Shown one piece after another: positions 7,206 to 31,087 of a stretch of 64,000 nt of DNA; position 1 is the stretch's first letter, and each line of letters starts with the position of its first letter. Below the pieces are notes generated by a model that did not search any database, was not told the DNA's origin, and was given only the letters and a program-made list of their open reading frames with translations. The stretch spans positions 1 to 64,000 of the IMG/VR virus record IMGVR_UViG_3300032038_000016. One strand, given 5' to 3'. Source of the DNA: a virus (taxonomy: Duplodnaviria; Caudoviricetes). The position numbers and the translations under genes were made by a program.

Positions 7206-7232
7206 ATGTGTCGGGGCGATGCCCCGACATAT
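7206..7232 (+). terminator. Intrinsic terminator
   Basis: ATGTGTCGGGGC-GAT-GCCCCGACATAT followed by TTCTTTT. Confidence 0.75.
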
Positions 7233-7622: not shown

Positions 7623-7645
7623 ATTGCGGGGCAATGCCCCGCAAT
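7623..7645. terminator. Bidirectional hairpin between convergent genes
   Basis: ATTGCGGGGC-AAT-GCCCCGCAAT. Confidence 0.7.
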
Positions 7646-13732: not shown

Positions 13733-13802
13733 AATTATTCTCCTCACTTATATAAAAAAATCAGCCGGGGTGTTATCCCCCGGCTATGTTTGTTTGGTTT
13801 GA

Positions 13803-16159: not shown

Positions 16160-16204
16160 ACAAAAAAACAAACGGAGGTGGGGCGTAATGCCCCACCAAC
16201 ATTT

Positions 16205-22572: not shown

Positions 22573-24399
22573 TTAAATTGTACCTATATTGGCATCGATA
22601 AATTCACAATAATCCGTGATACTTGGAAGATGGAACCACTCATACACCACTGATGCAATGTTTCCATTCTTATACGCATTGAAGATTGGACCACTCATAT
22701 CCTTCTTGTGAATTTCTTTCTTTTCCTCACTCGTCCAAGTATACTTCTGATTGAACGACCGATTCAATACACGTGTATCCGGACTTGTGAATACTGCATT
22801 ATCAATGATACATTTATATTCCAACGACATAGGATCTTGATTCTCACCCATCTTCGTGGATGGATAATATGCCTTCGCATCAGCATCCAATGAACCATAA
22901 ATGATATTGTTTGTTCGTTTCCCGTTAATCACCAAGCCAGTCTTTGCATTTAAAGATGTTTCGGCAACAAACGCACCCTCATATGCCGTATCAATTCCTT
23001 CGGGCACTAACAAACGACAAGACTGAACAAATCCCTCTTTCTCAAAATAATATTCTCGAGAATTACGGACGATGTGTGTCTCTTGGAAGCACTTTGAGAA
23101 TTGTGTACAGAACGTATACGAACGAGAAGCAAACGCACCAGCATCTCCACTATTGATGGCGACTGCTAACTGAGCAACAGTATCACGCATATTATACAAC
23201 AGGAACTTGATAAAGTCGGTATATGCGAATTCACGGAATGTACCACTTTTCGTATCCGATAACTTTGTGATTCCTGATGTTGTTTTCGCCACATAGTTTA
23301 AGGAATAAGAACGCAAGGCTTGTTGTGACTTTCTGGTTGCTGCATACAGTCTCTCTTGACAAAGATACTGAGTATAAGATGATGCATAAAAGAAGTCTTT
23401 CGAGTTCTTAATTTCCGCATCTGGATTATGATCCATTGAGAAGTATAATGAGCTTGTCTTAAATTCTTTTGGGATCATAAATTCACGAGGATCATACCCC
23501 AACCAAGCAATCCGGTTCATCAAGTAATTGTCATCAAACGGGGCATTCCACGACATAGTGAACCAAGGACGATACTTGCGAATATACTCGAATATCGTTT
23601 TGATCATAACAATTTCTTCTTCGAACGGATACAAATGCACACGCACCTCATATCCTTTCAAGTATTTCTGATTGTCTTGATCTGTGTCAATGATCATACG
23701 TTTAAACTCATCCAAATGTCCATTTAACCATTCCCATGCAGAACGTTGCTTATTTAATAATTCATGGAACTTCGGATGCAATTGTGAATTCGGACGGGGA
23801 CCTAACACAAATAATACTGCAATCTTTGCTTCTTCAAGAATCAACGATACTGCATTGATGGGTTGTGGTGCTTGCTCATAATTTCGTGGATCAATACTAC
23901 GGTCCAAAACATCAACCTCAATATCCAAGTATGCTGATTTTACCTTTGAGATATCATAATCCTTTCCAAACTGGTTGATCCATCTCAATCGGAAGTACAC
24001 ATCTTCTTTGAAGTCTGCTTTGAATACCCATGGACACTCACACATCTTCTTTTTGACTTCGAATGGTCCAACTTGGTCTTTGAGTTGATAATAAAGTTGC
24101 CCCCATTCTCCACCAATCTCTTTTGCAATGGTTTCTGCAATCTTGGATGGTTTACACAGTACAGGATAACAATCCTCCATCTTCGCTTGAGCAATCTGAT
24201 ATTGATTATCCCTCTTATCAGGTTTCAAGAACCAGATGTCAACAATTGCTTTTTCATATTTGACTTCTAAACGATTTGTGATTCCATCATAATAGACTAC
24301 TTCAAATTCTTCAGATGGTCTTCTCACGTATCTGACATCAAACAGCATACTTCCCTCTGGGTATTGTAATGGTCGATATACTGAAACTGGATCTGTCAT
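22573..24399 (-). CDS. Family B DNA polymerase, N-terminal subunit (exonuclease to motif A)
   Basis: ExoI LDIEVD, ExoII WNAPFDDNY, SYSLNYV, ExoIII YNMRD, YEGAFV and motif A DADAKAYYPS. Motifs B and C are absent. Confidence 0.85.
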   Translation of the reverse strand: MTDPVSVYRPLQYPEGSMLFDVRYVRRPSEEFEVVYYDGITNRLEVKYEKAIVDIWFLKPDKRDNQYQIAQAKMEDCYPVLCKPSKIAETIAKEIGGEWGQLYYQLKDQVGPFEVKKKMCECPWVFKADFKEDVYFRLRWINQFGKDYDISKVKSAYLDIEVDVLDRSIDPRNYEQAPQPINAVSLILEEAKIAVLFVLGPRPNSQLHPKFHELLNKQRSAWEWLNGHLDEFKRMIIDTDQDNQKYLKGYEVRVHLYPFEEEIVMIKTIFEYIRKYRPWFTMSWNAPFDDNYLMNRIAWLGYDPREFMIPKEFKTSSLYFSMDHNPDAEIKNSKDFFYASSYTQYLCQERLYAATRKSQQALRSYSLNYVAKTTSGITKLSDTKSGTFREFAYTDFIKFLLYNMRDTVAQLAVAINSGDAGAFASRSYTFCTQFSKCFQETHIVRNSREYYFEKEGFVQSCRLLVPEGIDTAYEGAFVAETSLNAKTGLVINGKRTNNIIYGSLDADAKAYYPSTKMGENQDPMSLEYKCIIDNAVFTSPDTRVLNRSFNQKYTWTSEEKKEIHKKDMSGPIFNAYKNGNIASVVYEWFHLPSITDYCEFIDANIGTI

Positions 24400-24550
24400 A
24401 TACCATTCCTCCTTTTCTGTATTTTGTATTTAACTGTCTTTTCTTACCTTCTTTCTATATTAACCTATCTACTACTTCACCCCGTCAATTAAACAATATA
24501 CATGTGTAAAAAACTTTTTCCAGTACCATACAAAATTTGTATTTTTTTTA

Positions 24551-24657
24551 ATTTTTCATATATGTACTATTAATATGACATTGGGAAACCAATTGTCTTA
24601 TTTAGTTCCAGGGAAATACAAATCACGATCCCTGTTTAATATAGTCCGAACATCCAC
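24551..24657 (+). repeat. 107-bp direct repeat copy 1: early promoter plus structured 5' leader
   Basis: 105/107 identical to 29166-29272. Contains ATATGTACTATTAATATGA, a GAAA-capped hairpin and a CAGGGA/TCCCTG stem. Confidence 0.92.
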
Positions 24658-24688
24658 CCTTATCCCATTCATTGAAGGAGGACGTCCA

Positions 24689-24898
24689 ATGAACAAGTTA
24701 ATCGAAAAAATCGGCAGAAGAACGTTATCTGCCGAGGAACGTGCTGAAATCTCCAAGAATTGGAAATCTCTTTCTCCATTAGAGAAACTCGAGATTGCAT
24801 GCCGAATCAGAGGAGTTAGCCGCTCAAGCACAGACACTGCGATGCTTTACATCGAAACAATCGAGATTTTGGAGGATCTCGAGAAGCGTTATGTGTGA
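24689..24898 (+). CDS. Small hypothetical early protein (69 aa)
   Basis: RBS AAGGAGG; MNKLIEKIGRR... Confidence 0.75.
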   Translation: MNKLIEKIGRRTLSAEERAEISKNWKSLSPLEKLEIACRIRGVSRSSTDTAMLYIETIEILEDLEKRYV

Positions 24899-25107
24899 CA
24901 GATTCTCTCTCCATATTGTGGAACATGATTTGTATACATTGGCCTGTTACAAGACCAGTGGGGCATCACGAGCCCATCATGTTAAACATGCCATTGTACA
25001 TTCGCATCACGAGCGAGGTAAACCGAGTACAAGGAAGTTAGGGTAGTCCCTTGCAATGGTTATGCCATGATAAAATTGTCCGAATAACCCGCCCCTAGGG
25101 GCGGGTT
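24899..25107 (+). ncRNA. Candidate structured ncRNA with repeated AUCACGA hairpin loops
   Basis: About 200 nt with no RBS-supported ORF, multiple stems, two GC-ATCACGA-GC hairpins, ending at a 22-nt perfect palindrome. Confidence 0.55.
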
Positions 25108-25141
25108 CCGAACTTTCATGTTTTAGAAAGGAGGTCCCATT

Positions 25142-25258
25142 ATGCATGAAACCAGAATTAATTGGCCACAGTTTACCATTCTCACGGCCAATTATAAGTT
25201 TCCCATTCTGTGCGGCGTTAAGCAAATCAGATGGGAGTTCGTCCCAAAGACGAATTAA
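25142..25258 (+). CDS. 38-aa peptide (not in ORF track)
   Basis: Strong RBS AGAAAGGAGGT; MHETRINWPQFTILTANYKFPILCGVKQIRWEFVPKTN. Confidence 0.55.
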   Translation: MHETRINWPQFTILTANYKFPILCGVKQIRWEFVPKTN

Positions 25259-25284
25259 AATAATGTAAGAAAGGAAGTGTTAAT

Positions 25285-25875
25285 ATGGCACTCGATCAAA
25301 ATGACAAGCAGTTCATTGCCGATATGATTCAGCAGAATAATCAAGCAATGATGACAAATGTCACACAGATGATTCAGCAATTGCAACCGCAGCAGATTCA
25401 GCAGGCTCCGGTACAGCAGTATGTTCCCCCACAGGTTCAGCAGGCACCAGTACAGTATATGCCTCAGCAGCAGCAGACCCAGCCACAGATTCAAATTATC
25501 CAGCCATCTAATGCAAACAGCTTCGGGAATATCACCCTTGAGCAATTAGCAACAATGCCGGATTATATGCGTCAGGCGTTCATTAACTATGCTGGGGAAG
25601 GTTCAGTAAGTCCGGAAGTACAGCAGTTGAAACAGGAACTTCAGGACTTGCGTGATGCCCAGATGATGCTGCTGTGGCAGAATCAGGCAAACCAATCCCG
25701 TCACCATTCTACCAAGAAAAAGGTTGCTATCGGTGTTGGTATTGTAGTTGGTGTCGGTGGTGTGGCGTATGCAGTTCATAAGATTTCTCACCGTCACGAC
25801 AAGGACAGAATGTTTGAAGCTGGTTTAGCAACCGCTAATCGCTTCATTGATGCAAAGTATGGCAAACCCGAATGA
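25285..25875 (+). CDS. Gln-rich protein with C-terminal TM helix
   Basis: QQAPVQ repeats; VAIGVGIVVGVGGVAYAV TM segment. Confidence 0.8.
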   Translation: MALDQNDKQFIADMIQQNNQAMMTNVTQMIQQLQPQQIQQAPVQQYVPPQVQQAPVQYMPQQQQTQPQIQIIQPSNANSFGNITLEQLATMPDYMRQAFINYAGEGSVSPEVQQLKQELQDLRDAQMMLLWQNQANQSRHHSTKKKVAIGVGIVVGVGGVAYAVHKISHRHDKDRMFEAGLATANRFIDAKYGKPE

Positions 25876-27727: not shown

Positions 27728-29116
27728 TTAATCTTCTTCTAACAATCCAGAGTATTGATGATCATCAATAATCAATGTGATTTTCTTTTTTGTTTTCTCG
27801 TCATTTTTCTGTGCTACCTGGGAAATATCAGGAGCTGTTTCGACAACAATTGGTGCAGGAGGTGGTTCCAACTCTGGTCCACTATCAGTGCTATCACCAT
27901 CATTGTTACTGTTCTTTGGATATCCGTTCAATCCTGCTCTTTTGATGATAGATGGGAAATCCTTGTAACAATAATCCAAGTCAACCTTGCCATTGATTCC
28001 CGGAATACTGCCTGTGAAAGAATATTGCCACATATCATATGCTCCACTATATGTGGTTTGTGCAATATTAATCTGAGCAACCCATACAGTATAATCGGTC
28101 TTTACCGCGTCATTCATATATGTGAACCCACTCTTGGAAGAATAGATCCCAACAAAGTAACCAGCTTGTTGTACAATATTCATGAATGCAATTGCCATTG
28201 CTGAGCATACGTTATTACCTAACTTGAATTGGGATTCTTCTTCTAGATCCAAATATACAGGATATTCAAATTGTTTTCCTTTGATGACTTCTAAGAATGC
28301 GCGAGCCTCTTGTTGTGCTTCGGTAACACTCTTTGCATAGGAAAACCAATAACAACCAACTGGAATCCCAACACGTTTTGCATTTGCATAATTGGTTTCA
28401 AATGTTTGATCCTTTTGAGATGTTAGTTTTCCATAACCAGCTCTGAGGATGACATAATCAACTTGACCAGATGCTTTTAATGTATCCCAATTAATTGTTC
28501 CATTGTGTTTTGATACATCGATACCACGTAACTTTGTACTCATATTGATCTCTCCTTGTTGTTGTGGAAGGGGTGGATGTTCATCCAATACAACTTCATC
28601 ATCCATACATAGATCAACATACTTCTGATAAAATCTTGTACCAAATGCAGCACGACCAGCTTTTGCCGCATCAGATTGATCAGCAGGGTTCTCATAATCG
28701 GTCATAACAATATTAGATGCTTCTGCAACAGAGTTTGTTGAACGAAGAACTCCAATAATCGTAGCAGGGAAGTCATGTTCCAATTCATAGATAATGAAGT
28801 CAAGTTGCATATCCAAATCGCCAATGGACGAATTACGATTCTTGGCATATGTCAACAATGCTCCTTTGCGATAATGATGTGTCCATTGTGCCAAACCATA
28901 ACCAGCTTGATCACGAATGAAGTTTTGATATGTCCCATTATCAACTGCTTGGGTATACGATTCATCATCATACCCCAATGAACGTTCGTACGTATTCTGG
29001 AGATTATGTGGGTTCAATGCCGATTCGGCATACAAGTTGCCCATTAAACCAGCAGCTCCAGCTTTGGTGAAACCATATGAAATGAGCTTACACCAAATTC
29101 GTTGTTCGTTATCCAT
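27728..29116 (-). CDS. Endolysin: phage-tail-lysozyme domain plus GH25 muramidase
   Basis: AAGLMGNLYAES...GYGLAQWT (tail lysozyme), then GIDVSKHNG...VYLDLEE...WQYS...VDLD (GH25). Confidence 0.92.
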   Translation of the reverse strand: MDNEQRIWCKLISYGFTKAGAAGLMGNLYAESALNPHNLQNTYERSLGYDDESYTQAVDNGTYQNFIRDQAGYGLAQWTHHYRKGALLTYAKNRNSSIGDLDMQLDFIIYELEHDFPATIIGVLRSTNSVAEASNIVMTDYENPADQSDAAKAGRAAFGTRFYQKYVDLCMDDEVVLDEHPPLPQQQGEINMSTKLRGIDVSKHNGTINWDTLKASGQVDYVILRAGYGKLTSQKDQTFETNYANAKRVGIPVGCYWFSYAKSVTEAQQEARAFLEVIKGKQFEYPVYLDLEEESQFKLGNNVCSAMAIAFMNIVQQAGYFVGIYSSKSGFTYMNDAVKTDYTVWVAQINIAQTTYSGAYDMWQYSFTGSIPGINGKVDLDYCYKDFPSIIKRAGLNGYPKNSNNDGDSTDSGPELEPPPAPIVVETAPDISQVAQKNDEKTKKKITLIIDDHQYSGLLEED

Positions 29117-29165: not shown

Positions 29166-29272
29166 ATTTTTCATATATGTACTATTAATATGACATTGGG
29201 AAACCAATTGTCTTATTTAGTTCCAGGGAAATACAAATCACTATCCCTGTTTAATATAGTCCGAATATCCAC
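29166..29272 (+). repeat. 107-bp direct repeat copy 2: early promoter plus structured 5' leader
   Basis: 105/107 identical to 24551-24657. Confidence 0.92.
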
Positions 29273-29306
29273 ACATAACCAAAAAAAAATTAGGAGGTCA
29301 TTAACA

Positions 29307-30990: not shown

Positions 30991-31021
30991 TTTGTATGCT
31001 GTACTGTGAAGAAAGAAATAG

Positions 31022-31044
31022 GAGTGGGGCCAATGGCCCCACTC
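31022..31044 (+). terminator. Intrinsic terminator
   Basis: GAGTGGGGCCA-A-TGGCCCCACTC followed by TGTTATTTTTCTTTT. Confidence 0.75.
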
Positions 31045-31087
31045 TGTTATTTTTCTTTTGTTCTTTTATTAAAGGAGGCGAATGTAC

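Follow-up and report, generated by a model that had tools for sequence, protein, structure and literature searches.

A predicted structured RNA with recurrent heptaloops, conserved downstream of an orphan 69-residue protein gene in a jumbo phage and its relatives

The window, the whole 64,000-nucleotide stretch of DNA analysed here, is the first 64 kb of a 130,667-base IMG/VR virus record which CheckV estimates to be ~48% complete, a size and completeness that identify the virus as a jumbo phage. Its B-family DNA polymerase shares only ~26% identity with the enzymes of the Bacillus phages AR9/PBS1 and of Staphylococcus jumbo phages. Across a promoter region from the polymerase gene lies the gene for p69, a protein of 69 residues, followed by an RNA element and then by the gene for p196, a Gln-rich protein with a C-terminal membrane helix. 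Querying with the polymerase recovered seven IMG/VR loci, four of which (L004, L005, L006 and L010) carry the RNA element, and all four retain the same gene order of a p69 homologue, a gap of 230-300 nt and a p196 homologue. GenBank phages yielded neither a DNA match to 24400-25300 nor a protein matching p69. A two-domain lysin, combining a phage tail lysozyme with a GH25 muramidase, is encoded on the minus strand at 27728-29116; the GH25 lysin and the strong GGAGG ribosome-binding sites (RBSs) suggest a Gram-positive host. ARAGORN detects no tRNA or tRNA-like gene anywhere in the record, the window included. The locus is laid out as follows.

22573-24399, minus strand: DNA polymerase gene, divergent from p69 with a common promoter region, ~500 bp from the RNA element
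24609-24634, plus strand: leader hairpin CAGGGA-N14-UCCCUG, with a 14-nt loop ending in AUCACGA (24622-24628)
24689-24898, plus strand: p69, 69 aa, directly upstream of the RNA in every homologue
24914-25072, plus strand: probable full RNA element of ~160 nt, closed by helix P1 (24914-24921 with 25065-25072), from MFE folds
24922-24983, plus strand: 5' domain, in which helix P2 (24922-24929 with 24976-24983) encloses Ha and Hb, from folds
24924-24929 with 24977-24982, plus strand: stem CATGAT/ATCATG, from ViennaRNA
24937-24960, plus strand: hairpin Ha, CAUUGG...CCAGUG, from the alignment, with a longer loop in the window than in L004 or L005; also predicted by ViennaRNA as stem CATTGG/CCAGTG
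24961-24975, plus strand: hairpin Hb, GGGC-AUCACGA-GCCC, with a 4-bp stem
24987-25064, plus strand: 3' domain, in which helix Px (24987-24998 with 25052-25064) forms a four-way junction with Hc, He and Hd
24990-24998 with 25052-25060, plus strand: stem GCCATTGTA/TGCAATGGT, from ViennaRNA
25001-25017, plus strand: hairpin Hc, UUCGC-AUCACGA-GCGAG, with a 5-bp stem
25023-25036, plus strand: He, an invariant CC...GG around the 8-nt loop GAGUACAA, from the alignment
25040-25051, plus strand: hairpin Hd, AGGG-UAGU-CCCU, helix 7 of the covariation count
25086-25107, no strand assigned: perfect 22-nt GC palindrome without a U tract, from the sequence
25285-25875, plus strand: p196, 196 aa, the downstream gene in every homologue

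The sequence-only reading of this DNA, from which our analysis departs, had singled out two hairpins that carry an identical ATCACGA loop on different outer stems. Both are present, the first being Hb and the second Hc, and they have in common the exact 11-mer GCATCACGAGC at 24963-24973 and 25004-25014. Across the 64 kb this 11-mer has two exact copies and one site with a single mismatch, against 0.56 expected when up to one mismatch is allowed. All the other stems that the reading placed around them are likewise there, each predicted by ViennaRNA in a fold of -68.7 kcal/mol (z = -2.45; 3 of 200 shuffles as good), and the region does close on a perfect palindrome of 22 nt at 25086-25107. The reading had also proposed counting stem-flanked copies of the loop genome-wide. 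When both strands of the whole 130,667-base record were scanned for A[CT]CACGA loops on stems of at least 4 bp, Hb and Hc were the only such hairpins, base shuffles giving 0.43. Apart from the leader loops, the record thus offers no further AUCACGA hairpins that a titrated factor could bind.

The bare motif behaves differently from the hairpins. ATCACGA occurs at 24 sites in the window where 12 are expected, and this excess is an artefact: the mRNA reads UCGUGAU at 33 coding sites of the 130.7-kb record, and each of the 33 arises from an Arg-Asp codon pair, NNT-CGT-GAT, always in the same frame; a dispersed ATCACGA motif was rejected on these grounds. The strong NNT-CGT-GAT preference in G000 doubles the ATCACGA count. 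The same sites bear on a trans-acting antisense regulator, in which U-turn-type loops (U-N-R at positions 2-4) would present CAC(G)A seeds for kissing with (U)CGUG sites in mRNAs. The repeated C-rich loops of Staphylococcus aureus RNAIII and RsaE act by such loop-mRNA kissing, and two identical exposed loops on stable stems, UNR at positions 2-4 in most loops and 33 phage coding sites reading UCGUGAU would all suit a regulator of this type. However, every one of those 33 sites is a codon-usage effect, and the translation-initiation regions of the record (n = 103) show no enrichment, with 0 UCGUGAU, 1 UCGUGA and 2 CGUGAU. As the seed is also not kept in L005 (ACCACGA) or in L006, we regard antisense action as quite improbable.

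The element divides into two sub-domains, the first comprising Ha and Hb and the second a four-way junction of Px, Hc, He and Hd. Together they probably form a structured RNA domain on the plus strand, with a core at 24937-25071 and a full extent of 24914-25072. MFE folds of all five homologues end in a long-range outer helix, P1, of unrelated sequence. P1 beats shuffles in L005, L006 and L010 (z = -5.0, -3.5 and -3.1, respectively) but not in the window or L004, and for this reason the limits 24914-25072 are only probable in the window. Within P1, an analogue of P2 can be recognised by eye in L005 (UGCGAU/AUCGUA) and L006 (CACU/AGUG); L004 is without P2. The 5' strand of Px reads GCCAUUGUA in the window, CUGCAUUGUGGUA in L004, CAUAUUAAUAUG in L005 and CAUACCGAUAUG in L006. 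He sits within a conserved purine stretch, ACRAGGRA (25029-25036). Hd takes the form GAGGA-CAG-UCCUC, GGUC-AAAA-GACU or GGUC-GAGA-GACU in the relatives, and its outermost pair is G-U in all five sequences of the tool's alignment.

Support for this architecture comes from five sequences that represent four lineages, L006 and L010 being near-duplicates. The p69 proteins are 47% to about 31% identical across the relatives, yet the gaps between p69 and p196 align. RNAalifold applied to a sequence-only MAFFT alignment recovers the helices of the earlier reading, with 13 of 33 pairs changed on both sides. In the model-fitted alignment of the five sequences, 87.8% of pair cells are paired compared with 33-41% when partners are slid by 1-3 columns, and 14 of 33 pairs are changed on both sides compared with 1-4 when slid. 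None of 500 shuffles reached the observed values for pairing or for two-sided change, a control that overstates significance for related sequences. The alifold energy of -19.1 lies ~7 sd below that of column shuffles (-4.4 ± 2.1). Two-sided changes are found in Px (6 of 11 pairs), Hc (4/7), Ha (3/6, helices 1-2) and Hd (1/4). The Hb stem and He show no covariation; as both are invariant, covariation neither proves nor refutes these two helices. Nucleotide identity is 62-77% in the core against 53-66% in the flanking coding sequences, and a 24-nt stretch around Hc is the same in the window and in L004 even though their p69 proteins are only 47% identical. Covariation in relatives had been named beforehand as a check on the candidate RNA, and it has come out in favour: the predicted helices are maintained by compensatory change in the five phages, and a conserved structured RNA is well supported by the comparison.

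The sequence-only reading had pointed to the overlapping ORF at 24795-25046 as a possible refuter. Both this 83-aa ORF and a 48-aa ORF at 24895-25041 exist in the window, and either could in principle make the region protein-coding. Against this, every forward frame through the core contains at least one stop in all five homologues. No frame is kept open through the core in any of them, which dismisses the 83-aa ORF, and the local ORFs of the window and L004 take different frames through the stretch that the two have unchanged in common. Alignment of the gaps requires indels that are not multiples of three, and substitutions compensate one another within helices instead of tracking codon positions. 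On this comparison the predicted RNA region is non-coding, and the chance of the coding alternative is negligible. A mini-ORF starting from an AUG in the 3' strand of Px runs from 2 to 50 codons and, judged by eye, is conserved in neither length nor sequence; it was set aside.

Assignment to the plus strand follows from 14 G-U cells, spread over 7 pair positions, against 3 C-A cells, and from gene context, p69 and p196 both flanking the element on the plus strand. The call rests on these two observations given that thermodynamics picks no strand: RNAalifold scores slightly better on the minus strand (-22.3 versus -19.1) and, of the five sequences folded singly, only three have the better MFE on the plus strand. 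That the minus strand folds equally well would also be expected of a DNA-level element, in which 11-bp direct repeats or palindromes act as protein-binding iterons or as single-strand hairpins of a replication origin. Its position ~500 bp from the divergent DNA polymerase gene and a 41-bp repeat spacing, close to four helical turns, fit such an element. However, stems that change while loops stay constant are the opposite of what duplex-DNA recognition predicts and, together with frequent G-U (G-T) pairs, one of them invariant, argue against a duplex-DNA binding site. The repeat spacing shifts to 51 bp in L004 and ~58 bp in L005, and the element tracks p69 and p196 rather than the polymerase, which G003 and G004 possess without the element. 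A role at the level of DNA is accordingly most improbable.

Across the relatives the loop motif recurs more faithfully than its position. Ha, whose loop is longer in the window, carries AUCACGA in L004, ACCACGA in L005 and GAGCAA or GAACAA in L006 and L010, respectively. Hb aligns to GGC-GUCACAG-GCC in L004, GGC-AUCGCAA-GCC in L005 and GGC-GUCGCAA-ACC in L006. Hc is CUCUGC-ACCACGA-GCAGAG in L005 and CCAUGC-AUUCACAU-GUAUGG in L006, and CAC is invariant in its loop in all five sequences, while the He loops of the relatives read AUCACAA, AUGACGA and AUUAACGA. The recurring loops also appear on other stems, as in CACC-AUCACGA-GGUG of L004 and UACUAC-ACCACGA-GUAGUA of L005, such that AUCACGA is carried by GGGC, UUCGC and CACC stems and ACCACGA by UACUAC and CUCUGC stems. 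The loops of Ha, Hb, Hc and He are mostly 7 nt, sometimes 6 or 8 nt, closed by C-G with a consensus of C[R-Y-C-R-C-R-A]G, and usually end in ACGA, ACAA or GCAA; those of L006 and L010 drift (GAGCAA, GAACAA, GUCGCAA). Of the conservation expected for the loops, what holds is the motif, which recurs on covarying stems, whereas the exact loop is not invariant and single loops differ between phages. The repeated-loop theme is, on this alignment, a trait of the predicted family, and the hairpin that bears the exact copy drifts.

The anticodon-loop geometry ascribed to the two hairpins at first reading is retained for Hc in the window and L004, and breaks down in L005, where two loops have C at position 2. 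Elsewhere, Hb has a 4-bp stem and L006 and L010 have 6- and 8-nt loops. A precedent for anticodon mimicry in mRNA is the Escherichia coli thrS operator, in which two anticodon-arm mimics are bound by dimeric ThrRS. The element resembles this operator in presenting, on one mRNA, two hairpins with identical 7-nt loops whose second nucleotide is U and whose sixth is a purine. Unlike thrS, it lies downstream of a gene rather than over an RBS and has no synthetase gene nearby, its U33 equivalent is unconserved (L005), and its relatives have up to four such loops.

Mimicry could alternatively serve a tRNA-Val anticodon-arm decoy (NAC: CAC, GAC or UAC) that occupies a host synthetase, a modification enzyme or a defence anticodon nuclease. 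ValRS identity rests mainly on A35 and C36, and the loops, 7 nt long with U in second and a purine in sixth place, show middle triplets of CAC, GAC or UAC in most cases across the homologues; Hc has, in addition, the 5-bp stem. However, two loops of L005 have C where U33 would fall, the triplet in Hb is CGC in L005, L006 and L010 and the stem of Hb only 3-4 bp, and ARAGORN finds no tRNA-like gene. The resemblance to tRNA-Val is putative, no Val-specific anticodon nuclease is known to us, and we consider the decoy very unlikely indeed. A broader variant is that a ~160-nt RNA with three to four anticodon-like heptaloops (C[AUCACGA]G, NAC core) would, alone or with p69, capture a host reader of anticodon arms such as ValRS or a defence nuclease that attacks tRNA; this too we hold to be very unlikely.

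The element is rare. The covariance model R1, built on a 131-position core, finds one copy each in the window and the four relatives L004, L005, L006 and L010, and nothing else. R1 was also run on ~100 loci retrieved with degenerate patterns, 80 genome loci and the near-complete relatives G003 and G004. It matched G000, G001, G002, L004 and L010 with one copy each, always 10-20 nt after the p69 stop, and gave no copy in G003 (100% complete) or G004 (92%). The ~100 loci, which came from two degenerate RNA patterns, were all rejected by the covariance model except those already known. Polymerase and p69 searches of viral contigs for further homologues returned only the same four contigs, a scan of metagenome contigs returned only the L004 contig again, and neither the p69 query in prokaryote genome contigs nor the P0008 and P0011 queries in viral contigs gave a match. 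In all, the element was found in five contigs among 2.9 million in IMG/VR. The 17-nt Hc pattern, considered as a CRISPR-repeat mimic, gave single scattered genome matches and no arrays among the matches listed, and no member of the RNA family was present among the 80 loci listed.

Rfam 15 has no match at gathering scores in the 64-kb window, and none falls on the element between 24000 and 26000 at E values up to 10. At the homologous loci L115, L116 and L015 no sub-threshold family recurs over the element. An RNAI row (26.7 bits against a gathering score of 47) is nothing more than the palindrome read on the minus strand, and the only PrrB_RsmZ row (24 bits against 44) comes from the opposite strand of L015, away from the element; both were discarded. 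A long hairpin at L115 124-207, in G001 ~1.4 kb upstream of the RNA element, scores E = 8e-6 against a plant miRNA precursor model. It is far below the gathering score and is probably just a long perfect phage hairpin.

The sequence-only reading had likened the element to RNAs of the CsrB/RsmZ kind. Membership of that class is not borne out, as the loops AUCACGA, GUUACA and UAGU have no exposed GGA, the sole conserved ACRAGGRA has its GG paired in He, and there is no Rfam match. The likeness to the CsrB, RsmZ and RsmY sponges is one of design, in that a single RNA displays several hairpins with the same short loop in a manner that suits multivalent protein capture. It differs from CsrB-type RNAs, which rely on A(N)GGA, in its R-Y-C-R-C-R-A loops with one conserved AGGRA stretch, in having three to four sites compared with 7-22, in lying in the 3' UTR of a phage mRNA and in having no known link to CsrA. 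By eye, the He region shows some likeness to the sarcin-ricin loop of 23S rRNA (AGUAC...GGA), to the CsrA SELEX consensus and to the repeat hairpin of Cas13a, with each of these fitting only a subset of the homologues. As for the ROOL and GOLLD candidates, the element is an intergenic phage-borne RNA recognised by covariation; unlike these it is much smaller, very rare and without an Rfam match. By these comparisons the predicted element represents a rare RNA family that is new, though its general kind is known.

Upstream, the transcript that would carry the element appears to start from a duplicated leader, present in the window at 24551-24665 and 29166-29280. The first ~30 nt of the leader (AT-rich, with CATATATGTACTATTAATATG) have five further occurrences in G001, five in G002 and another two in G000, and look like a phage-specific promoter consensus. 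That the leader loop contains ATCACGA at 24622-24628, and ATCACTA in the second copy, was correctly read from the outset; with AUCACUA in copy 2 (29224-29249) and AUCACAA in L004, only AUCAC-N-A is kept, and the leader hairpins of L005 and L006 have other C/A-rich loops. In the window, L004, L005 and L006 the second leader hairpin has a short motif, AUAUAGUCC, after it.

Downstream, the palindrome at 25086-25107 probably forms the 3' end of the p69 transcript or punctuates it. Tested as an intrinsic terminator, the site has a GC hairpin followed by the tail CCGAACUUUCAUG without a U tract, and the scan made no call on the plus strand. At the same site L004, L006 and L010 have unrelated strong hairpins and L005 has none. 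Intergenic GC-rich palindromes of one style, a G/C stem around CCAATGG, GCAATGC or similar, occur genome-wide, in the window at 7206-7232, 7623-7645, 13763-13785, 16177-16197 and 31021-31045 and in G000 at 75869-75897, 87740-87758, 109527-109549 and 122271-122289. They have no U tracts and read the same on both strands, and may serve the phage's own transcription system as terminators or as sites of processing. Given that the terminal palindrome belongs to this genome-wide class, the element in the window looks like a structured 3' UTR of a short leader-p69 transcript.

An alternative is that the element acts in cis on p196, as a leader, a riboswitch-like sensor or an antitermination signal whose fold gates passage beyond the GC hairpin. 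The element always lies between p69 and p196, with p196 co-occurring strictly, and an autonomous domain with a closing outer helix is typical of sensor domains. In L005 there is no strong hairpin between the element and the p196 RBS ~25-30 nt downstream, and the element there runs straight into that RBS, which would accommodate a cis-regulatory role for p196. However, the distance from the element to the p196 start varies from ~30 to 213 nt, with intervening sequence unrelated between phages, and in the window both the GC palindrome and a separate 38-aa ORF with a strong RBS come before p196. No conserved alternative pairing with a terminator or RBS was seen, conservation is concentrated in the repeated hairpin loops rather than in junction nucleotides, unlike known riboswitches, and Rfam again provides no match. 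We consider control of p196 unlikely, if the strongest candidate among the alternatives. The 38-aa ORF occupies 25142-25258, between the palindrome and p196, with its RBS (AAAGGAGG) at a 6-nt spacer; L004 and L005 have no ORF between element and p196, and L006 has an unrelated 50-aa ORF that overlaps the 3' end of the element.

Lambda nut boxB with N protein and the HK022 put RNA are early-transcript hairpin signals, and the element is comparable to them as a structured RNA, putatively in an early phage transcript, before a terminator-like hairpin and with a small protein encoded nearby as a possible partner. In contrast to boxB and put, it has no boxA, it has heptaloops rather than GNRA-like pentaloops, p69 has no arginine-rich N-terminus, and it forms a closed ~160-nt domain with a four-way junction that occurs once per genome.

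p69 is itself an orphan. Its family forms 8 clusters at 50% identity among 1.84 billion proteins, further contigs (up to 168 kb) encode the p69-family proteins P0002 and P0004-P0010, and p69 has no Pfam or PHROG family match. An AF2 model predicts four helices with a pLDDT of 91.7. Foldseek found no match to this fold in the PDB at E <= 0.001, the ESM Atlas nothing usable, and a wide VIA structure search gave a best Z of 4.8, with all values below 5. The charge counted from the translation is near-neutral and a recognisable RNA-binding fold was not found. Four residues are invariant, three of them R18, W25 and Y68, which, we infer, would lend themselves to stacking on bases and contacting phosphates. 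The profiles of p69 and p196 have the same presence and absence as the RNA, with three records containing all and G003 and G004 containing none, which makes the three parts one module. Strict co-occurrence and adjacency thus strengthen a putative link between the RNA and p69; as p196 co-occurs just as strictly, co-inheritance fails to single out p69.

Our preferred reading, to which we assign a probability of roughly 0.4, is that this is a new phage RNA domain within the p69 transcript that would act as a multivalent protein-binding platform, with p69 as the first candidate partner. An early transcript from the duplicated promoter and leader would encode p69, probably end at 25086-25107 and carry the element. 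The heptaloops would provide repeated binding sites and, taken as such, would make the RNA a multivalent platform. p69 would be the most likely partner in that it would be made from the same transcript and is always inherited with the RNA. The outcome may be a p69-RNA particle, or else p69 may be titrated or subject to feedback by way of the 3' UTR in its own mRNA. The data would fit a host protein as partner just as well. The putative sponge or autoregulatory operator put forward by the sequence-only reading is plausible, and decoy action would be a hypothetical variant of it.

The rarity of the element, five contigs, limits the present weight of the finding. Its interest lies in the same heptaloop being presented on unrelated stems, with covariation support, and tied to an orphan 69-residue protein and a membrane protein in what would be an early operon. 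To our knowledge, the non-coding RNAs of jumbo phages are almost unexplored. Were the capture of a host factor to be true, it would represent an undescribed kind of RNA-based counter-defence or translation-control device. If the loops bind protein, p69 and its 160-nt RNA would provide a simple pair for a new mode of RNA-protein recognition. It might also prove to be a new device of the phage for regulation or for use against the host, and would otherwise still constitute a new RNA family for the databases.
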